Virus record (IMG/VR): IMGVR_UViG_2541047728_000005
Source of the DNA: a virus
Taxonomy: Duplodnaviria; Heunggongvirae; Uroviricota; Caudoviricetes
DNA: 47,804 nucleotides
Direction: 5' to 3' (one strand)
The notes beneath the pieces were generated by a model, which did no database searches, was not told the origin of the DNA, and was given only the letters and a program-made list of their open reading frames with translations. A program made the translations under genes and the position numbers. Positions 4,207 through 44,730 of the stretch are shown here, piece by piece. Each line of letters opens with the position of its first letter. Position 1 is the first letter of the stretch.

Positions 4207-6991
4207 AACTTAATCTCCGTTGTTGGAACATATGAGCACTCAATTTCTTCTCAAAATCAGAATATCCCGCATCTAATGCTCTTTTAGCTGCCGCCTCAGT
4301 TTCCTTTGGTGAACCAGCCGGAAGATTGATTACAGGTGAATAGGTTATTCCACCAGTCACAGCGTTAACGTTCTGGCGAGGTCCAGAAGTCCCAGCGGCA
4401 GATATCCCGTGAGGTGATAAATTTGATTGCCCGAACTTGCTTGCTATTGCATTCTGTAAGCTGTTATTCCTGCTAACACCTGATGCCAGAGTAGTCATTA
4501 TTGCACCACCTGACTTTGTTAGCTGTGAGAATGGACCTTTTTTCGCGTCAGAGAACGGTAAATACTCACGTACAGAAGAAAAAACGCCTTTCACTTCATT
4601 AATTAAAGCATTTGCTTTTGATTTTATCCCAGTGATTAACGTCTCAATTATTTTTGCGCCTGACTCACTCCAGTTTATTCCAGATAAATAAGTCGTTACA
4701 GATTGGAATGCTCTTATAAAGAGTCCAACTGGTGAAAAACGCATAAAAACAGATACCAGTGTATCTATGATTTTCTTTCCTGTTTCGCTCCAGTTAATGC
4801 CAGAAAGGTAATTTGTTGTAATTTTAAATGCTTTAATTAAGAACGGAAGCGGAGACATCCATTTAAAAGCACTAATTAATGTACTGTAAATTCTTACTCC
4901 TGCCGAACTCCAGTTTATGTTGGAAAGATAATCCCATGCTTTACCAAACATAGATATAATCCATCCATTGAGGTCAAAGTTTAAGATAAAGTTTTTTATA
5001 GCCTCAAATGATTTAACTGTATATTCCTTAACAGAAGGCCAAACTCTGACAGCATAATCTCTGATCTTATCCCAATTCTGATAGAGCAATATTCCTGCGG
5101 CAACCAGCGCAGATATAGCCATCTGAATCCACCCGAAGGGTGTTAGCTTTGTCGCTACAGATAAAGCCAGCATAGCTACCCTACACGCTATAACCACACT
5201 TTTCATGGTTAGAAACGCACCTGCCGCCATCACTATCTGAGACACAAAATTGGGGTTGTTAGCTACAAATTCACTAATTTTTGTAATCAGCGGAACCAAA
5301 ACACTAAGCGCGGCATTCAAAGCAGGTTGCAAGGCCTGACCAAAACTTAATGATGCATTGCTAGCCTGAATACGTAATTGTTTCAATCGCTCCGCATTAT
5401 CTTTCGTTATGTTGGCAAAATCGCGGTCAATAACAGCACTTCCAGCTCCAAGAGATGTTGCTTTGATTCTCTGGTATTCCTTCCAGTTTTGAATCATCGG
5501 ACGAACAAAGTTCTGAACCTGCATATCGCCAAATAGTTCACCAAGTAACTTCTGATCTCCGTTCTTAGTCATTTTCATGACAGAATGCATTGCAGCTTCG
5601 AATGGATTCTTCCCTTTTTTCTGCGCTGTTGTAACAATTTTATATAAATCTACACCGAAATTTTTCTTTGCTTTTTTTAGTGTTTCAGGGGAAAGTATTT
5701 TTGCCAAAAAGTTGTTCATATTATTAGCAGCCTCATCCGAAGTTGCAGCCCCCTTGCGAGCTATCTGCAAAGCTGCACCCATCGTCGCGGCTGCTTCTTT
5801 ACCTCCCATTTTTAATGCCTGGAACTGAGCACCAAGCACAGGAAGATTTTTGGCCATATCTTTAAATTCAAAGTTCCCCTCTTTCCCTGCCTGAACCAGA
5901 ATCCCCATTGCAGACTTCATTTGAGATGGATCAATCTTCAATGAGTCACTTAATGTAAATGATGCTTTCGAGACATCGAGGATATCAGAGCCAGTAGCTG
6001 TAGCTGTTCGCCCAATAGTTAGTAGATTCGCCTGAGCCTCTTTATAATCCTGCCCAGCAGCGACGAGAAAACCCTGAGCGGCCTGAATATCAGATGCAAA
6101 CTGGTTGGTAGCCGTTCCGGTAACAAGCATCGCCTGCCCCATCGCCTGAACTTCTTCCGGCTTCATATCTGCCGTAAGACCAATCATTTTGTTTTCACGA
6201 TTGAAATTTGCTGCATTGTTAGCAGCAGCAAATGCACCAGCCGCTACAGCACCAGTTTGTAATCCTGACCTTACAAGTTGACTCTTTGCCTCACCAAGAT
6301 GCTCTCGCTTCAATTCACGCTGCCTTTCCAACGCGCGGTTTAACTCCTCCTGAGCACGTTTTACTGCAAGAACATTTTTCCGTGCTTCAGCCAACGCATT
6401 TTTATAGCTGTTAATTTTATCAATACGTTGTTTTTCTAATGCCCGGTTAAGTTCCTCCTGCTGTTTTTTCACTTGCTGAACATTTGCTCTGGCTAAAGCC
6501 AAAGCCGTTCTGTAGCGGTTAACCTGCTCAACGCTACGGGCCTGAGCCTCACGATTACGATCAATGCTGGCTTTAAGCTCTTTCTCTCTTGAGGCCAAAG
6601 CTCTGGCAGATGTATCAGCTCCCTGATAGGCAGACTTTAAAGCGGCCAGTTCTTCACGCTGAGAACGTAGTGATGCTCGTAAATTTGATGAATGTGTTTT
6701 TGCCTTCTCAAAGTCACGAAGCATCGCTCTGGTTGGATTGGCCGTGTTTTTTATTTGCTTCTGTAACTCTTCAACGCGAGCGGCAGCTTTATGATATTCG
6801 AGGGCAGTCTGTCCAACCTTTACTTTTACAGATTGTAGCTTTTGAATTTCCCCATGTTCTTTCGTTAATCCAGCAAGCTCTGCATTTAATTTAGCAACAG
6901 CCTGATTAGCTGTAGTAAAACTTTTGGGGAGAGAGGCGGCAACTTTGCCGCCAATTTCAAAAGCCAGCTTAAAGTTCTTATTGCTGGCCAT
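4199..6991 (-). CDS. Tail tape measure protein
   Basis: 930-aa ORF; N-terminal coiled-coil with repeated AxLxRxxEE heptads, central hydrophobic segments, three tandem ~37-aa repeats ending in YLSGINWSE; follows chaperone gene. Confidence 0.85.
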   Translation of the reverse strand: MASNKNFKLAFEIGGKVAASLPKSFTTANQAVAKLNAELAGLTKEHGEIQKLQSVKVKVGQTALEYHKAAARVEELQKQIKNTANPTRAMLRDFEKAKTHSSNLRASLRSQREELAALKSAYQGADTSARALASREKELKASIDRNREAQARSVEQVNRYRTALALARANVQQVKKQQEELNRALEKQRIDKINSYKNALAEARKNVLAVKRAQEELNRALERQRELKREHLGEAKSQLVRSGLQTGAVAAGAFAAANNAANFNRENKMIGLTADMKPEEVQAMGQAMLVTGTATNQFASDIQAAQGFLVAAGQDYKEAQANLLTIGRTATATGSDILDVSKASFTLSDSLKIDPSQMKSAMGILVQAGKEGNFEFKDMAKNLPVLGAQFQALKMGGKEAAATMGAALQIARKGAATSDEAANNMNNFLAKILSPETLKKAKKNFGVDLYKIVTTAQKKGKNPFEAAMHSVMKMTKNGDQKLLGELFGDMQVQNFVRPMIQNWKEYQRIKATSLGAGSAVIDRDFANITKDNAERLKQLRIQASNASLSFGQALQPALNAALSVLVPLITKISEFVANNPNFVSQIVMAAGAFLTMKSVVIACRVAMLALSVATKLTPFGWIQMAISALVAAGILLYQNWDKIRDYAVRVWPSVKEYTVKSFEAIKNFILNFDLNGWIISMFGKAWDYLSNINWSSAGVRIYSTLISAFKWMSPLPFLIKAFKITTNYLSGINWSETGKKIIDTLVSVFMRFSPVGLFIRAFQSVTTYLSGINWSESGAKIIETLITGIKSKANALINEVKGVFSSVREYLPFSDAKKGPFSQLTKSGGAIMTTLASGVSRNNSLQNAIASKFGQSNLSPHGISAAGTSGPRQNVNAVTGGITYSPVINLPAGSPKETEAAAKRALDAGYSDFEKKLSAHMFQQRRLSFG

Positions 6992-23457: not shown

Positions 23458-23562
23458 TCTCCGGTTTAACCAGGGCGGGTATCGCTCGGTTTCGGGTATA
23501 ACCATAGGAAATTTTTTCCCACCTGTAAAGCACTTTTTATATAAATATATAATTATATAATT
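23458..23562 (-). promoter_or_regulatory. Conserved promoter-leader cassette, copy 1, with upstream palindromic TATA-rich array
   Basis: ~105 bp near-identical to 30406..30520 and 39875..39985; contains TTTACA-N17-TATGGT on minus strand and TATATAATTATATAA palindrome. Confidence 0.6.
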
Positions 23563-24144
23563 CTATGCCACTTGCCAGAGAGCATCATGCAACTGGATAC
23601 CTCCATTGCACTGGTTGCCCCAGCCATGCCAACCATCAGGTAAATCACCGCGAGCAAACAGCTCAATACGAGGAACATCACCTAACAGCCTTACCAGCTT
23701 GTCACGAACCACATCAGGCTTCCGAGAATGCTCCAGACGAGGCGATGTAAACGACTGAATGATCCCCGCATCAAGGCGGGTCGGCAATTTGCCTTTTACC
23801 GCAAACAAGCAATCTTCACTGTTTGCACGAGTCATATGCCCCATCCCCAGCTTATCTGGTTGTCGGCTACCACATTTGTTCCATGTGAAGCCCTTCATGG
23901 TCATAAGCCTGAATCCCCATGCTTTCACCACCAGCAACGCTTCTTCTGGCTGAGTCGGAACCCACCACATGGCCAACAAACACGATTCAGGATTAGCAAG
24001 CTGCCAGACAGGAATACGAGCAATATCCTCAGCTTTCATCGTTGAATACTTAAAACCAGCTCCACGATTCCCATCCTTACACTTATCTTTGTATTCCCAG
24101 GGGGGATCTGCATAAATCAGATTAAACAATGCAATTGCCTCCAT
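23563..24144 (-). CDS. DNA N6-adenine methyltransferase, MT-A70 family
   Basis: 193 aa with N-terminal catalytic motif IYADPPWEY. Confidence 0.8.
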   Translation of the reverse strand: MEAIALFNLIYADPPWEYKDKCKDGNRGAGFKYSTMKAEDIARIPVWQLANPESCLLAMWWVPTQPEEALLVVKAWGFRLMTMKGFTWNKCGSRQPDKLGMGHMTRANSEDCLFAVKGKLPTRLDAGIIQSFTSPRLEHSRKPDVVRDKLVRLLGDVPRIELFARGDLPDGWHGWGNQCNGGIQLHDALWQVA

Positions 24145-24621: not shown

Positions 24622-24667
24622 TGGTTGATGCGTGCGCCCATGAGAAAAGCGCATAGAATGTTGTAAC

Positions 24668-24700
24668 TATATATTTATATAATTATAGAAATATATATTA
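24668..24700. promoter_or_regulatory. TATA-rich palindromic repeat array (same family as parA-upstream repeats)
   Basis: tatatatttatataattatagaaatatatatta between spanin genes and tRNA. Confidence 0.45.
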
Positions 24701-30405: not shown

Positions 30406-30520
30406 TCTCCGGTTTAACCAGGGCGGGTATCGCTCGGTTTCGGGTATAACCATAGGAAATTTTTTCCCACCTGTAAAGCACTTTTTATATAAATCTATAA
30501 TTATATATTTATAGATTTTC
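30406..30520 (-). promoter_or_regulatory. Conserved promoter-leader cassette, copy 2, immediately downstream of Q-like gene, with palindromic ATCTATAA...TTATAGAT array
   Basis: Near-identical to copies at 23458..23562 and 39875..39985. Confidence 0.6.
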
Positions 30521-34245: not shown

Positions 34246-34346
34246 GATTATAGATTTATATAATTATATAAAACGCTTTTCATCCGCCAAAAAGTTGGTT
34301 ATGCTTACCTCGTTCTATAAATATAGATTTATAGAATTATATAACC
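34246..34346. repeat. Two TATA-rich palindromic repeat arrays upstream of parA (candidate centromere/operator)
   Basis: gattatagatttatataattatataaaacgc and ctataaatatagatttatagaattatataacc; related arrays at seven other loci. Confidence 0.55.
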
Positions 34347-35021: not shown

Positions 35022-35056
35022 TATATAATTATAGTTTTATAGATTTATATAAGAGG
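35021..35056. promoter_or_regulatory. TATA-rich palindromic repeat array between parA and RHH gene
   Basis: atatataattatagttttatagatttatataagagg. Confidence 0.45.
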
Positions 35057-39485: not shown

Positions 39486-39866
39486 TTACTTAACGAGGAA
39501 TAAAAATGGTTTATCGTTCGGCGGTGTAATCGGGGCTGGCTCGCTTTTGCTCATGCGATCAGTGTACCAGGCCAACTCCTTGTCAAAGTAAGCCTGATTA
39601 AAATAGGCCATGAATGTGGTTTCAAATCCATAACGACCGCTAATACGGAGCATCTGATTGCCGTTCTCTGTTTCCAGATATACCTGGGCACGTTCCTGAT
39701 TCTCCTTCAGCCAGGTTAAAGCCTCATCGCACGAGGACAAACGATACTCATCATCGTAGCCGTCATCGATGCGGCTTGAAGAAGAACGGCAAATCACGCC
39801 AACAGAACCAGCCAGGATAGTTTGAATTTTAAGGAAAGCGTTTTTGCGGATTTTAATCATGCTCAT
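39486..39866 (-). CDS. Hypothetical protein with N-terminal signal-like hydrophobic segment, first gene behind cassette copy 3
   Basis: 126-aa ORF; ATG preceded by conserved CCGGAGATAACCCG leader. Confidence 0.45.
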   Translation of the reverse strand: MSMIKIRKNAFLKIQTILAGSVGVICRSSSSRIDDGYDDEYRLSSCDEALTWLKENQERAQVYLETENGNQMLRISGRYGFETTFMAYFNQAYFDKELAWYTDRMSKSEPAPITPPNDKPFLFLVK

Positions 39867-39874
39867 CGGGTTAT

Positions 39875-39985
39875 CTCCGGTTTAACCAGGGCGGGTATCG
39901 CTCGGTTTCGGGTATAACCTTAGGAAATTTTTTCCCACCTGTAAAGCACTTTTTATATAAATCTATAATTATATAATTCTATGAG
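39875..39985 (-). promoter_or_regulatory. Conserved promoter-leader cassette, copy 3, with TATA-rich array
   Basis: Near-identical to 23458..23562 and 30406..30520 (single a/t difference in 'aaccttagg'). Confidence 0.6.
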
Positions 39986-39988
39986 CGC

Positions 39989-40013
39989 AAAAAAGCCCCT
40001 TTGCAACAGGGGC
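39989..40013 (-). terminator. Rho-independent terminator after higA
   Basis: Minus strand GCCCCT-gttgcaa-AGGGGC followed by TTTTTT. Confidence 0.65.
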
Positions 40014-40029
40014 TTATCATTCGTTCTGA

Positions 40030-40329
40030 TCAGATGTTAAACGCTATTCGTTTTCCTGTGGGAAGCTCAACATCCAGGCTTAATTTGCCTCCCATAGCTT
40101 CAACGTAACGCTTTAATGTCGCCAGCTTTAAATCATTTCCGCGCTGCTCCAGCTTTGTTACTGCTGGCTGGCTTATACCCATCGCCTCAGCAACCTGTTT
40201 TTGTGATAACTGGAGTTCTTCACGCATCATCTGCAAGCCGACCTCAAGAATCATCTCATCTGCCATTTCTTTAATTCGCGCCTGGCTTTCAGGTGAACGG
40301 CTGGCAATCGCCTCATCTAATGTTCTCAT
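40030..40329 (-). CDS. higA: HigA-like antitoxin (XRE HTH)
   Basis: 99 aa; HTH LSQKQVAEAMGISQPAVTKLEQ; directly downstream of and overlapping toxin gene. Confidence 0.7.
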   Translation of the reverse strand: MRTLDEAIASRSPESQARIKEMADEMILEVGLQMMREELQLSQKQVAEAMGISQPAVTKLEQRGNDLKLATLKRYVEAMGGKLSLDVELPTGKRIAFNI

Positions 40330-40682
40330 TACTTGCTCTCCAGTGTGTTCAGATGTGCTGCAAACTCATCCTCAGCTATACGCACCAGTTTTTCATAAAA
40401 CCGCTTATCGTTACTTTTGTCTCCTGCACAAAGAACGATGGCCCGGCGAATCGGATCGAACGCATAAAAGGCTCTTATCGGACGGCCAGAAAACTGAACG
40501 CGAAGCTCTTTCATATTTTTGTACCGAGAACCTTTTACGGTATCGGCATATGGCCTGGGTAACTCAGGTCCGTAAACCTGTAGCTTTTTCAAATCAGCCA
40601 AAACCTTTTCCTGAAGAGCGTCTTCTTGCTCATTTAGCCAGTCGTCAAATCGCTGGCTAAAAAGTACCGTCCACATGCTCAA
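40329..40682 (-). CDS. higB: HigB-like toxin (RelE/ParE superfamily, Gp49-like addiction module killer)
   Basis: 117 aa; toxin-first order with XRE antitoxin; pattern ...DWLNEQ...KNMKELRVQFSGRPIRAFYAFDPIRRAIVLCAGDK. Confidence 0.7.
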   Translation of the reverse strand: MSMWTVLFSQRFDDWLNEQEDALQEKVLADLKKLQVYGPELPRPYADTVKGSRYKNMKELRVQFSGRPIRAFYAFDPIRRAIVLCAGDKSNDKRFYEKLVRIAEDEFAAHLNTLESK

Positions 40683-40686
40683 TCCT

Positions 40687-40732
40687 ATAACCTGTAGTTT
40701 ATATCACTAACTATATAACCTGTGAGTTATAA
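40687..40732. promoter_or_regulatory. Tandem palindromic operators upstream of higBA
   Basis: tataacctgtagtttata and tataacctgtgagttataa. Confidence 0.5.
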
Positions 40733-40920
40733 TTTCAAGAAAAACGGGGCTATTTAACATAATGGACGTTATCGGCACCACCGGATCACCGTTCATTGTC
40801 GGATCTAAAAAATCCGCTCAAAAGATCATGTTTTCCTGGGCGTTTTCCACCGTTTTTTATGTTGCTTATTTGTTAATGAAATCTCGTTTTCAGTTTCGCC
40901 TCATTTTCGACGCGAAAGCC

Positions 40921-41211
40921 CTATTTTTGTGACTTTACTCCTGGCATATGGACTTCCCAGCGACGAATCCCCATAGCTGCGCAAAAATCAGCCACATAAT
41001 TCAATCCCGCCCATTCGCGGATACCACCACGGGCTTTTTCAATGAAAACGGCAATCCCTTTTTTATTGAGAGCAAAAAGCCGCCAGCTTTTTGTCACTTC
41101 GTCCTGGGTAGCCACAACACAAGTGAAAGCTCCCATGCGATACAGGTCCAAGAACTCTTTGCGTGTTTTGCGTACAAGTTCCATAACAAACCTCATATTT
41201 GCATGTTTCAA
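40921..41211 (-). CDS. Hypothetical protein
   Basis: 96-aa ORF downstream of replication region. Confidence 0.35.
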   Translation of the reverse strand: MKHANMRFVMELVRKTRKEFLDLYRMGAFTCVVATQDEVTKSWRLFALNKKGIAVFIEKARGGIREWAGLNYVADFCAAMGIRRWEVHMPGVKSQK

Positions 41212-41507
41212 ACATCTGTTTTGTTATCAATGAAGATTAACCCTAACCCAGCGAAGTAACACAGCAGCGCCCAGGCTGCATACGGAATGCTGGATCTGGA
41301 TGTGGACTCCTTTAACATCTGCCAGTTGCGAACATTGCGACTATCTTTTAAGCCTAGTTTTTTGGCTAACTGCGAGCCGCTCATTCCGGTCAGGCCAATG
41401 ACTGCCCGAACTTCTCCACATGTAGGAGATTCCCATTCATCCGCTTTTTTTAAACAAGCCGGATTCAACATTTTTAAAACAGTATCTTTATCCATAACCA
41501 TCTCCAT
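41208..41507 (-). CDS. Putative HTH DNA-binding protein
   Basis: 99 aa with IGLTGMSGSQLAKKLGLKDSRNVRNW HTH-like segment. Confidence 0.4.
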   Translation of the reverse strand: MEMVMDKDTVLKMLNPACLKKADEWESPTCGEVRAVIGLTGMSGSQLAKKLGLKDSRNVRNWQMLKESTSRSSIPYAAWALLCYFAGLGLIFIDNKTDV

Positions 41508-41859
41508 TTATTATATCTACGATGGTAGGAAATCTTTTCCTATGTGGCAATAGAAATTTACTACATTGCGTATAAGACAAGTTTTCTATGTCTAATAGGA
41601 AATGATGTTTCTTACATTTTATCGCGTTCTGATGGCTACTGTGTGCGTATTTATCGACGTTTATTGATAAGGCTCGCCCCTTCCTCCTGCAAAGCCCGGC
41701 CGTAGGCCTTATTTCGGCCTTATATAAATTGATTTTGTATAGTTCGAAACGTGCCGTTTCGAAAAGGATGATCAGGCTGCTCCATGCCTCCGGCAAGTGC
41801 CGGAGGAGGTATATTTGAGCGTAGCGACTCGAACCGGCGCGAGCTTTAGCTCGCTGCAA

Positions 41860-42138
41860 GGGCGAACATATTCACAGGCAAAGCCTGCGTAAGTTAAATA
41901 AAGAAAGTCTTAATAAAAGAAAGTGATTTTGCATTTATTTGTTTAGTGCATCTATTATAAAAAACCATTTGCATATACATATCAGAACTGTGGATAACTT
42001 TATTAGCCGATGCCTGTAAAGGCGATATTTTTGCTGTGTTCAGGTTTAGAGAAAATTAATTTAGATTGTTTTTTGAACAGATATTTTATTGCGACGTAGA
42101 TAATCCTCCGGTAAAACCGGATTCATCATTCAGGTGGG
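41860..42138. other. Candidate plasmid origin region downstream of repA (AT-rich, DnaA box TTATCCACA at 41989..41997 on minus strand)
   Basis: Perfect DnaA box consensus; location immediately 3' of repA as in IncFII oriR; flanking hairpins at 41746..41762, 41781..41804, 41841..41856. Confidence 0.45.
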
Positions 42139-43119
42139 TTAATGTTGGAGTGATTTCCAGGTCTTTCTTAACCTGTTATAACGCTGCTCAACGAGGGATC
42201 GTAAATATGCAAGGTCAGCACCAGGATACATGCCATCAGCAAATTCCTGACTAACCTCTCTGGTGATTTGATGACGAAGTTCGGCCTCTCCCTTTTCCCG
42301 AACAAGACGCGCAGCTCTCTCCGCTGCTTTCTGTTTTGCCTTTATCTCTCTGGCCGTCTTCCTCTGACGCCATACATTCTCCATCTGCTCCTGAATAACA
42401 ATACGCTTATAATCAGCCTCCGTTATCGCTTTTTTAAGCCGTTCGCTATTCTTCGCATTGAAGTAATTAAGTTTCTGGCTAACCGCACGTCTCCATGCTT
42501 GTTCAGTAATACCAACGGTTTCCAGCAGTTGATCACGAATCTCTATTTTCGCTGGCCAATACTGTTTATTCACCCGATCCCAGCGACGTTCATAATCAAT
42601 AAAACCTAACGCTTTCAGTTGCGACAACGCCCTTGTACAGCGCGTTATAGACTTGTTCCCAGCTTCGGATACGGTAGACAGGCCGCAAAAATCAGCCAAC
42701 GCCTCAGCACTAGCCAGAACCCGCTTAGAAATGATGTTTACATGGTGCAAAATCGCAGCGATCACAGCATTAATCGCCCGACGACGATGCTCGTTTATCC
42801 GGCGCTTCCGCTCTGACGGTTGATTAACGTAGAACGCAACCTCACACGTAAGATCACGCCCATTAATGCGCTGTAAAGCATCAGATAACACCAGCGGCAG
42901 CTTGTGCGTATGGTGCTTTGGAGGCTGGAACTCCGGCGACAAATTACAAACGTAAGCTGAACGTAGAGACGGCATTGGTCTATCCATATGTTCGCTCTTG
43001 CGTCCACGGAAAACCAACGTATAATGGGAGTTGTCGAGGCGCCCATGGATTGTTGTTGTTGGTTTTCCGTGGATGTCGCAAGAAGCCCGCAGATTTATCT
43101 GCGGGCTTTTTGTTTCCAT
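42139..43119 (-). CDS. repA: Replication initiator RepA (IncFII RepA1 family); true start possibly internal Met at 42987
   Basis: Segment RRRAINAVIAAILHHVNIISKRVLASAEALADFCGLSTVSEAGNKSITRCTRALSQLKALGFIDYERRWD closely parallels my recollection of R100/R1 RepA1. Confidence 0.8.
   Translation of the reverse strand: METKSPQINLRASCDIHGKPTTTIHGRLDNSHYTLVFRGRKSEHMDRPMPSLRSAYVCNLSPEFQPPKHHTHKLPLVLSDALQRINGRDLTCEVAFYVNQPSERKRRINEHRRRAINAVIAAILHHVNIISKRVLASAEALADFCGLSTVSEAGNKSITRCTRALSQLKALGFIDYERRWDRVNKQYWPAKIEIRDQLLETVGITEQAWRRAVSQKLNYFNAKNSERLKKAITEADYKRIVIQEQMENVWRQRKTAREIKAKQKAAERAARLVREKGEAELRHQITREVSQEFADGMYPGADLAYLRSLVEQRYNRLRKTWKSLQH
43031..43112 (+). ncRNA. CopA-like antisense RNA candidate in repA leader
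   Basis: Plus-strand TTGCGT-N16-TATAAT (42998..43025) followed ~60 nt later by 11-bp GC hairpin agcccgcagat...atctgcgggct and TTTTTGTTT (43084..43115), antisense to repA 5' region. Confidence 0.5.
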
Positions 43120-43585
43120 ATCTGGTCACTTTCCAACCAGACACCCACAATCATAACCACGTTACGTGGTTTTAAGAGAACTCTACCACAACACTTTCGG
43201 TCATGCACGAAGTCTCTCACTGATCGAACGATAATCCACCAGTAAAAGGATCTAAATTGGATCTCGTTTTGCGAGCATCATACTACTGGCCTAACTCCAG
43301 TCAATGATTCCCAGCCAGAAACCTGCGGTAAACTCATCGTTCAGCAATATGCTGTCCGGCTTCAAAGATAAGGTGACATCATCCCTTAACAGCGCGGCCA
43401 GTTCAGTTAAAGGGCTGTTCTGATTTAATGCTGGCCACTCATACCTGGTAATAAGTGGTCAGTCTTAACACTCACTATTTGATTGCACCCGTGTTGACGA
43501 TTTGTTACTGGATATCAGACACGCTGGATAGCCAGTAGAAACATACCATTAAAATTATTACAATAATTGGTCACATGATTATCTT

Positions 43586-44149
43586 ATGCTGAATAATAAA
43601 GATATGAATATTAATGAACTTAAAGACTGTATTCACTATGAAGTAATCGGTAGCGAGCGTCCTTTCTCCTGGCGAAAGGCAATTGTTCGCGCAATAAAAC
43701 ATAGAAGGGTTCGTTATTTATTTTGGTGGCGCATAGCCAAATACCTTTTTGATAAAGGCGGATACTGTCGGAAGATTGCGGGAAAAATAGAACGTTTCAT
43801 TCTTGATAAATATAATGTAACAGTCCCTTTAACTGTAAATATAGGGAAAGGCTTTGATATTTCTTATCTCAACAGTGTTGTTATCGGTCACAAAGTAACA
43901 ATCGGTGAAAATTGTTCAATTAAGCCCGGAGTAACTATTGGACTTCGCGGGGAATTTAATGATATGGATATTGTTATAGGGCATAATGTGACCATTGGTT
44001 GTAATGCCACCATTCTTGGTGGCAAAGTGCGTATAGGAAACAATGTCACAATAGGTGCTCATGCATTGGTATTGCATGATATTCCTGATGATTCAACATT
44101 CATCACTAAATTTCAGTCTGAAGTTATCTGCTCGTCCTCCCGAACATAA
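43586..44149 (+). CDS. Hexapeptide-repeat (left-handed beta-helix) acetyltransferase, moron-like
   Basis: 187 aa with tandem [LIV]-G-x-x-x-x-I-G repeats ([21 protein letters not shown]...[32 protein letters not shown]); AT-rich; convergent with and overlapping 3' end of tfa. Confidence 0.8.
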
Positions 44150-44730
44150 CCCTGATTCATCAGCTCTGGCCATACGATATCCGGAGCTGTACTGGTGTCA
44201 ATTCTACTCACTAATACTCTGTATTTTCTCCAGGAATCCAGTTGTGAATTTTCCTCGTTTGTTGCTATTTCAAGATTAACTGCATCCTGCAGAATTGCGA
44301 TGTTATCTGTTGCTTCCTGGATCAACCTTGCCTTTTTCTCTTCCGCTTCCCGTATCCGAAACAGTTTTTCTGCTTCCTCATCATTCACCCAGGATACGCC
44401 GTCCCACTTCTGATACTCCCCTGCTGGCGACAACCAGGTGACATTCTCTGGTAGCGGTCCGAGTTCAGAAATAAACAATGCGTCCCCCGACGCCACGTCA
44501 TAGACCGTTTTACCACGATGGTCTTCAACAATATTCCACGATTCATTTTCACTGTTAAAAACTGCCACAAAGCCAGCAGGAATTTCCGGTGGGGCGATAT
44601 CTGTAGAATTAGCTGGCAGCCCTGTATGAGGTGGAATATATGCGTCACCTTCACCAATAAACTCATTAGTTCCGGCCAGCAGGTTATAAATTTTTACGGT
44701 ACGTGATTGTTCACTCATTCTGAATGCCAT
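44113..44730 (-). CDS. Tail fibre assembly protein (Tfa family)
   Basis: 205 aa beginning [58 protein letters not shown], closely resembling E. coli prophage Tfa proteins; TAATG overlap with fibre gene. Confidence 0.85.

Follow-up and report, generated by a model that had tools for sequence, protein, structure and literature searches.

In the plasmid R1 and in the plasmids of the I-complex, a region called CIS separates the replication initiator gene repA from the origin and supports the action of RepA in cis. At the origin itself, Betteridge et al. reportedly found in 2003/2004 that RepA protects the RepA boxes of IncB and that TCTTAA is the opening hexamer, and the G site is said, since the work of Masai and Arai in 1989, to be the primase start of the R1 leading strand. 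Replication of R1 is unidirectional and proceeds away from repA, and two Ter sites lie between oriR and the G site of R100 (PMC4999828), where they can also be read in the R100 sequence. Here, we describe the region located 3' of repA in a 48-kb E. coli phage-plasmid available as IMG/VR virus record IMGVR_UViG_2541047728_000005 (47,804 bases, all of which were analyzed and are referred to as the window). This region, made of a core (41830..41997) and of a CIS-like spacer (41998..42138), is very probably the plasmid-mode (theta) origin of a replicon of the IncFII superfamily. An origin at this place is an expected feature and, as judged by several sequence criteria, it belongs to the known origins of this superfamily.

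Results

Position and conservation of the probable origin core

The window encodes on its minus strand a RepA protein which matched the Pfam family IncFII_repA (PF02387, E = 1.3e-43) and the NCBIfam model RepA_IncFII_LM (NF040977, 231.5 bits for a cutoff of 70), and the gene is annotated as repA in identical plasmids. The initial annotation of this DNA had proposed a candidate origin on the basis of a perfect DnaA box in an AT-rich stretch 3' of repA, where the IncFII oriR lies. The box (TTATCCACA) was found as described, on the minus strand, which is that of repA. The window has no other perfect DnaA box, and a search with the relaxed TTATNCACA gave no further match, leaving it as the single DnaA box of the element. 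Its surroundings are AT-rich, with a GC content of 22-28% over 41880..41999. The box starts 141 nucleotides (nt) past the repA stop. The corresponding distances, on the same strand, are 175 nt in R100 (stop at 5670 and box at 5846-5854 of L004) and 166 nt in R64 (repZ stop at 1486 and box at 1653-1661 of L019). The proposed location with respect to repA is supported by the family of the RepA protein, by the strand and distance of the box compared with R100 and R64, and by the conservation of the region.

Conservation was studied in relatives recovered from viral contigs and by homologous-protein search, a RepA-based scan of genome contigs having returned no relative. They comprised two viral contigs whose RepA is 85% (L011) and 81% (L012) identical to that of the window, three phage-plasmid contigs (L015, L017 and L018, 60%), a contig in which TrbC and NusG-like genes take the place of phage genes (L016, 63%) and the plasmid pKPC_CAV1857-43 (L020, 37%). 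Mean pairwise identities were calculated for successive segments in a seven-sequence alignment of relatives with 60-85% RepA identity (Table 1). Because of these values, the functional unit was taken to be an island of ~168 bp (41830..41997), of which the DnaA box forms the exact border on the side of repA. Its identity values of 72-94% contrast with 37-47% in the flanks, and it is far better conserved than both the spacer and the promoter region of the next gene. From the box onwards, the island contains three ATGCA(A/C) repeats, a stretch of 22-25% GC and the hairpins H1 and H2; no iterons or other tandem repeats were found near repA. The DnaA box was kept in 7/7 relatives, with 1-nt variants in two of them (TTATTCACA in L011 and TTATCCACT in L016). 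The core adjoins repA also in the TrbC-bearing plasmid contig and in the mobilizable pKPC_CAV1857-43, and is therefore linked to repA rather than to the phage genes. The interval put forward by the initial annotation, 41860..42138, overlaps this core; it consists mostly of the CIS-like spacer and cuts off H2.

Table 1. Coordinates, strand and conservation of the features of the origin region, and other listed features of the window.
Feature	Position	Strand	Mean pairwise identity	Remarks
repA, IncFII-family replication initiator	42139..43119	-		Open reading frame of 326 amino acids (aa)
Predicted countertranscript RNA against the repA leader	43030..43112	+		Stem, 16-nt loop, then intrinsic terminator
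Last 19 nt of repA			22%	
CIS-like spacer	41998..42138	-		141 nt, from repA stop to DnaA box
Bulk of spacer			38%	
Post-stop hairpin TCCGGT-TTT-ACCGGA	42107-42121	-		Covaries in the 60% group (TCCAGT/CTGGA)
TGTTCAAAAAAC in spacer	42068-42079	-		TGTATAAAAAA conserved; TGT(A/T)(T/C)AAAAAA(C/T) in relatives
DnaA box TTATCCACA	41989..41997	-	94%	
Box to third repeat	41925-41988		74%	
Repeat 1, TATATGCAA	41969-41977	-		T-A-N-A-T-G-C-A-(A/C) direct repeat
Repeat 2, TAGATGCAC	41946-41954	-		T-A-N-A-T-G-C-A-(A/C) direct repeat
Repeat 3, TAAATGCAA	41929-41937	-		T-A-N-A-T-G-C-A-(A/C) direct repeat
AT-rich stretch, presumed unwinding element	41890..41928	-		GC 22-25%; opening function presumed
AT-rich part	41890-41924		72%	
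H1-H2 part	41830-41889		80%	
H1, CAGGC-AAA-GCCTG	41875-41887	+		Feature spans 41868..41887; CAGGC-TTT-GCCTG on the repA strand
H2 module, CGAACCGGCGCG-AGC-TTTA-GCT-CGCTGCAAGGGCG	41830..41866	+		Hairpin GCGAGC-TTTA-GCTCGC, arms 41839-41844/41849-41854
Up to H3			51%	
H3, CCTCCGGCA-AG-TGCCGGAGG	41787..41806	+		9-bp arms 41787-41795/41798-41806
Beyond 41786			37-40%	
H4, TTCGAAACG-TGC-CGTTTCGAA	41743..41763			9-bp arms 41743-41751/41755-41763
TTATATAA-like arrays	23537-23566, 24664-24697, 30485-30513, 34247-34271, 35029-35049, 39953-39982			

The spacer appears to be the counterpart of the CIS region of R1 and of the I-complex plasmids, and in R100 the repA stop is followed by aatCCGGcctgcgCCGGagg and then by ATACAAAAAAC, in the same order as the post-stop hairpin and the A-run of the window. 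Past the DnaA box, the three repeats are spaced by 23 and 17 nt from start to start. Their ATGCA cores do not vary among relatives with 60-85% RepA identity; at 37%, two of the three are still present. In R64, too, the DnaA box is followed by direct repeats built on an NGCAA core (AATCCGCAA, AAGCTGCAA, AAACAGCAA and AACCTGCAA at 1664, 1688, 1702 and 1710), whose first two spacings, 24 and 14 nt, are comparable to those of the window and whose last is 8 nt, while R100-like origins have CTGCAA 5-6 nt past the box. An NGCA(A) core beside the DnaA box is, on this comparison, common to the whole superfamily, and the repeats of the window are therefore obvious candidate RepA sites, that is, candidate RepA boxes.

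The AT-rich stretch which follows contains two 15-nt direct repeats (41894-41908 and 41910-41924) together with TCTTTTA/TTAAGA motifs. The latter are related to TCTTAA, the hexamer of IncI1/IncB origins, which is found in R64 at 1724-1729, 3' of the four AANCNGCAA boxes; R100-like origins have CTTCTTTTAAA. TCTTAA in the I-complex orientation is not present in the stretch of the window, where TTAAGA and TCTTTTA are.

Comparison with R1/R100, I-complex and related replicons

The region resembles the oriR of R1 and R100 in being located downstream of, and co-oriented with, an IncFII-family repA, in its spacer with a post-stop hairpin and an A-run, in the perfect TTATCCACA at its repA-proximal edge and in the antisense RNA predicted upstream of repA. 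With R100 it further shares a TGCAA site after the box, an AT-rich stretch with TCTTTTAA-like motifs, H1, an ATATG motif and H3. The RepA of the window, in contrast, is only ~29-40% identical to those of R1/R100 over partial alignments and falls under the cutoff of the strict incFII_RepA (equivalog) model. The core is also shorter than in R100-like origins, with 135 nt from the box to H2 instead of ~200 nt, and three close ATGCA repeats replace the R100 layout. Considering the RepA cutoff, the G site, the Ter sites, H2 and the compact core, the origin of the window is not an R1/R100-type oriR in the narrow sense, and a G site ~400 bp downstream with flanking Ter sites is a feature of R1/R100 rather than of the whole superfamily.

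Likeness to the I-complex (IncI1 R64/ColIb-P9, IncB pMU720) extends beyond the repeats, since R64 has, after its TCTTAA AT-rich site, an H1-like hairpin, CTGTGAA, an H2-like CTTGCAGCG hairpin and H3. The window differs by having three boxes, not four. Moreover, BLASTP gave no alignment between its RepA and RepZ, and R64 carries an R100-type G site. The nearest non-phage replicon found was pKPC_CAV1857-43 (NZ_CP037739, MOB-suite rep_cluster_1367), whose RepA identity extends over 85% of the length and which has a first repeat ATGCAAATGG(C/T)TTTT, the H2 module and H3 at the same distances. It differs in being a mobilizable resistance plasmid, in the state of its DnaA box (see Discussion) and in a reduced H1.

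The Ter core TAGTTACAACAT is conserved after H3 in most IncFII-like contigs. None was found near the origin of the window, whose only Ter-like site is located at 24651-24673 on the plus strand (AGAATGTTGTAACTAT / gcatAGAATGTTGTAACTATata). This excellent match lies ~17 kb away from the origin and is surrounded by intergenic DNA conserved in 61 plasmids. Among the Ter sites of E. coli it most resembles TerC, agreeing at G6, at A8 and throughout the T9-A19 core, and no other perfect GTTGTAACKA occurs in the window. TerB blocks clockwise forks and, with the polarity assigned on this basis, the site would stop forks moving to higher coordinates and let the fork from the predicted origin pass.

A conserved hairpin module next to the AT-rich stretch

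The initial annotation had noted three hairpin-forming palindromes, said to lie upstream of the box. All three are real, with coordinates off by 2-6 nt, and a fourth hairpin, H1, had been missed; they lie at lower coordinates than the box, which is downstream of it relative to repA and to the predicted direction of the fork. The region with the four hairpins folded better than shuffled sequences on both strands (z = -3.8 and -4.2; 0/200 shuffles as good). H1 overlaps an inverted DnaA-box-like 9-mer, ATATTCACA (41868-41876), which is ATATCCACA in the 60% group; it shows compensatory variants in relatives (CAGAC/GTCTG and CAGCT/AGCTG), and CTGTCC-TGTG-GACAG stands at its place in R100-like origins. 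H2, on the repA strand, follows ATATG and reads CGCCCTTGCAGCG-AGC-TAAA-GCT-CGCGCCGGTTCG. H3 is the positional homologue of a 'GTA(C/G)C(T/A)CCC + hairpin' motif found after H2 across the superfamily and carried by both R100 and R64. H4 was kept only in relatives with 81-100% RepA identity and is absent from the 60% group; because it is lineage-specific, its membership in the origin is uncertain.

The distribution of H2 was studied by scanning one genome per species with the exact pattern CCTTGCAGCG-N8-14-CGCGCCGGTTCG. Among the 74 contigs recovered, ~67 were plasmid-like contigs of Enterobacterales, including Citrobacter, Pantoea, Erwinia, Serratia, Klebsiella, Yersinia pestis, Photorhabdus and Morganella. 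Seven others, from high-GC non-enteric genomes and without the inner palindrome, looked like chance matches. In ~55 contigs, tblastn identified a co-oriented IncFII-family repA upstream of H2, with 277-637 nt between the end of the gene and the motif. The repA genes were R100-like (54-80% identity), R64-like (35-70%) or CAV-like, and the RepA of the Yersinia pestis contig with H2/H3 was 78% identical to that of R100. TTATNCACA was present 146-205 nt upstream of the motif in ~35 contigs. In order to free the CTG flank from ascertainment bias, viral contigs were scanned with a looser pattern, CGCGCCGGTTCG-N8-38-CYCCC, which was uninformative: nearly all matches were chance ones in high-GC contigs, and one was a true module (L209).

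When 72 sequences were aligned, the three inner base pairs of H2 covaried (GC/AT; AT/CG/GC; CG/GC), with pairing in 99% of the cells, and H3 paired in 88% of the cells, with double changes in six pairs. The covariation score was 0.347, versus 0.119 for column shuffles (0/500 reached the observed value) and 0.03-0.07 with slid partners; this score is not a probability, as the sequences are phylogenetically related, which also means that the shuffle and Wilcoxon figures assume more independence than there is. Since the search pattern imposed the outer H2 stem and the flanks, the unbiased information comes from the inner pairs, H3 and the copies retrieved via RepA.

The non-Watson-Crick cells were unevenly distributed between the strands, with 42 C.A/A.C on the repA-sense strand, which are G.T on its complement, versus 3 G.T on the sense strand. 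All 4 such cells of H2 were G.T on the plus-equivalent strand, and H3 had 38 G.T cells on this strand versus 3 on the other. Folding with DNA parameters showed 69/72 modules to be more stable on the strand antisense to repA. The one-sided G.T pairs and the DNA folding therefore indicate that these structures are selected on the antisense strand, which is the plus strand of the window. As a control, the R100 G site was examined in the same way, and 41/41 of its homologues shared this strand polarity.

R100 itself lacks the ~57-nt H2 module, ...GATATG being directly joined to CACCTCCC-H3 (L004 6020-6050). Because this module is missing, the textbook oriR of R100 is atypical in this respect. Between '...AATG' and 'CCTCCC + H3', H2 was observed in nearly all the other origins, whether R100-like (77-80% RepA identity) or I-complex-like.

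Possible roles of the hairpins

On the plus strand, H2 forms a hairpin (41839-41854) with a CTG on its 3' side (41854-41856), in the order 5'-CGAACCGGCGCG AGC TTTA GCT CG CTG CAAGGGCG-3', and CTGCAAGG follows H2 on this strand antisense to repA, as at the primer start of phage G4. The annotated complementary-strand origin of G4 reads GGACGGCG-AAA-GCCGCCGTCC CTA CTG CAAAGCC, and the primer starts at that CTG. H2 thus has in common with G4 and the G site a GC-rich template-strand hairpin followed by CTGCAA(A/G)G, further hairpins on the 5' side and a position on the predicted leading-strand template. The CTG was kept in 9/9 H2 copies retrieved via RepA or accession despite changes in the neighbouring positions (CTGCTAGG in L011, CTGGAAGG in L016 and CTGCAAGCG in R64). 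A primer begun opposite T41855 would extend to lower coordinates, away from repA, which is the direction of R1. H2 might then be a G4-like primase entry site on the leading-strand template, a tentative reading which we consider less likely than not. If true, H2 would be the only leading-strand start in this lineage, which has neither an R100-type G site nor an origin-proximal Ter. Indeed, blastn did not detect the R100 G site (L004 6240-6385), nearly identical between R100 and R64, either in the window or in its close relatives.

The same structures, exposed as single-stranded DNA on the leading-strand template, could instead assemble a PriA-type primosome or bind a protein, either RepA or one of the host. 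An R100-type G site was present 250-300 nt past H2 in more than 40 of the plasmids with H2, which argues that H2 is not simply its replacement. The idea that H2 replaces the distal G site as a general rule was rejected on these loci; it is possible for the lineage of the window, which has H2 only. R100 is devoid of H2 and yet has a mapped origin. In addition, the CTG of the window overlaps the base of the stem, instead of standing 3 nt beyond it as in G4 (3-13 nt when the G site is included), and H2 has no overall similarity to the R100 G site. The lack of an R100-type G site in the lineage of the window, the retention of the CTG and the polarity shared by H2/H3 with the G-site control speak in the opposite direction, for a primase start. 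An assembly or binding site is conceivable without being favored, and is about as likely as primase entry. Whatever their exact role, H2 and H3 (CGAACCGGCGCG-hairpin-CTGCAAGGGCG, then a second hairpin) may represent a conserved, uncharacterised single-stranded DNA signal placed against the unwinding region of most IncFII-superfamily origins.

Single-strand initiation and termination were the two functions suggested for the hairpins by the initial annotation. As transcription terminators, or as parts of a small RNA, H1-H3 would shield the origin without acting as single-stranded DNA, and a transcript of one strand would likewise be expected to make pairing stronger on that strand. Only the plus-strand hairpin 41787-41806, which is followed by AGGTATATTT and was flagged as terminator-like, has a marginal T-tail; H1 and H2 have no T-run on either strand, and neither does H3 in most other members of the family. 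No plus-strand gene or promoter points into the hairpin region, no Rfam family matched in 41700-41900, and the invariant flanks CGAACCGGCGCG and CTGCAAGGGCG exceed what a terminator needs. Termination is on these grounds improbable, and single-strand initiation would be the better of the two suggestions, in agreement with the strand-specific covariation.

The repA control region and other features of the phage-plasmid

Upstream of repA, the RNA listed in Table 1 is preceded by TATAAT at 43020-43025, as read from the sequence, and folds with -41.1 kcal/mol (z = -5.8). With its stem-loop, terminator and TATAAT, it is predicted to be a typical countertranscript against the repA leader. An Rfam scan of 39500-44500 gave no CopA/RNAI match and left the origin and its hairpins without a match, the antisense RNA yielding only sub-threshold, terminator-like parts of unrelated families. 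The 326-aa open reading frame has an N-terminal extension of 44-49 residues which is absent from annotated homologues of 277 aa, and the predicted RNA (plus strand) overlaps exactly this extension (42973-43119, minus strand). Because of the size of the homologues and of this overlap, the true start of RepA may be M45 (42987) or M49 (42975), and the additional residues could come from a leader which, in this element, is by chance in the frame of repA.

The window corresponds to an essentially complete phage-plasmid, with terminase, portal, capsid (head), lysis and tail-fibre genes encoded elsewhere on it. Its 41500-43300 segment shows 100% identity with E. coli plasmids which are non-mobilizable and 47-50 kb long, e.g. 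NZ_LT985302 (ECOR 39 plasmid RCS82_pI) and NZ_CP032259, and 98.5-99.3% identity with the Yersinia phages vB_YpM_39/41/44. Public records of the identical plasmids annotate repA and not the origin, and MOB-suite assigned them no replicon type. A literature search retrieved no article dealing with this family of phage-plasmids or with the Yersinia phages.

Other features were observed in the element. On the minus strand at 40030-40682, ~1.2 kb from the origin, a HigB/RelE-like toxin gene (Gp49/DUF891, 117 aa) and a helix-turn-helix antitoxin gene (99 aa) overlap by one base and probably form a plasmid-maintenance module. The palindrome TAGGAAATCTTTTCCTA at 41523-41539 overlaps a promoter-like site upstream of a 99-aa gene (41208-41507, minus strand) and has an imperfect copy near 41591-41610. 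The TAGGAAA..TTTCCTACCATC motif is kept in the relatives with 81-85% RepA identity, and the palindrome looks like an operator and not like a part of the origin. Short arrays of a TTATATAA-like 8-mer, of 2.6-4.2 copies each, occur in six places; a regulator encoded by phage or plasmid may bind them, or they may be elements of promoters. Finally, 44189-44387 (minus strand), inside a tail-fibre assembly gene, gave a sub-threshold match to the Rfam family IS009 (81.5 bits for a gathering score of 117), which most likely reflects coding-sequence homology to prophage tail-fibre regions and not a small RNA.

Discussion

The placement, order and conservation of the elements found 3' of repA argue for an IncFII-superfamily origin, and several observations weigh against this assignment. 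The repeats do not fit the published RepA-box consensus of IncB/IncI1, AANCNGCAA, at positions 1 and 4 (the window has TA-N-ATGCA), and the first of them lies ~11 nt after the DnaA box, versus ~2-6 nt in R64 and R100-like origins. The window is devoid of the R100-type G site and of the two origin-proximal Ter sites of R100. The GC skew is negative in every 2-kb window over the whole element, the minus strand being G-rich, with no change of sign; it is compatible with a single fork moving towards lower coordinates and/or with the bias of genes to the minus strand. Confounded with gene orientation and giving no position, it was discarded as an origin locator. Finally, in the relative with 37% RepA identity the core is kept and the DnaA box is degenerate (TTATGAACA). 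Judging from this degeneracy, replication may do without the box, as reported for R1/NR1 (PMC5883639).

Could the box then be a chance 9-mer in a plain intergenic control region, holding the repA terminator and the promoters or operators of neighbouring genes, with the origin elsewhere, for instance inside or upstream of repA? One perfect box in 47.8 kb is within chance, shuffled sequences containing 0.46 on average and at least one in 38/100 cases, and a promoter-like site with a palindromic operator is present nearby (41522-41550). Because chance gives this number, the count of boxes carries no weight. The placement does: by our own estimate, TTATCCACA in the right orientation within 300 nt after the repA stop is expected with a frequency of ~300/4^9, or ~0.001. 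The position and strand of the box are constant in all relatives, R100 and R64, the conserved island begins exactly there, no iterons or other repeats were found near repA, and the same module is located 3' of repA in ~55 unrelated plasmid contigs, all of which makes a fortuitous box very improbable. Least credible of all is a phage function such as a lytic origin or a packaging or recombination site, which the head, tail and lysis genes of the element and the near-identical genomes deposited as Yersinia phages could evoke, since the core always adjoins an IncFII-family repA and is found in plasmids without neighbouring phage genes (L016 with TrbC, pKPC_CAV1857-43, R100-like and R64-like).

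With 41830..41997 and its spacer as the origin, a mode of initiation may be proposed by homology with the described systems. RepA, made from the adjacent minus-strand gene under the control of the predicted antisense RNA, would act in cis across the spacer with its conserved hairpin and would bind the three ATGCA(A/C) repeats past the DnaA box, host DnaA binding the single adjacent TTATCCACA box. Together they would open the AT-rich stretch (41890..41928, 22-25% GC), where DnaB would be loaded, and one fork would move to lower coordinates, away from repA, as in R1. The exposed plus strand, on which covariation and the G.T asymmetry reveal selection, would extrude H1-H3. More speculatively, and with the doubts expressed above, primase could start the leading strand at the CTG 41854-41856, just 3' of H2.

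The comparison shows a ground plan shared from R100-like to I-complex-like origins and to the present lineage, consisting of a DnaA box, NGCA(A) repeats, an AT-rich site, H1, H2 and H3. It provides a precise and testable origin (41830..41997 plus the spacer) for the widespread phage-plasmids of 47-49 kb found in E. coli, Salmonella and Klebsiella, a family which also includes genomes deposited as Yersinia phages, and this definition helps replicon typing, the prediction of incompatibility and vector design. A lineage without the distal G site allows the site and mode of leading-strand priming in IncFII-type replicons to be tested, and the part most worth following is the strand-specific H2/H3 module present across the superfamily.

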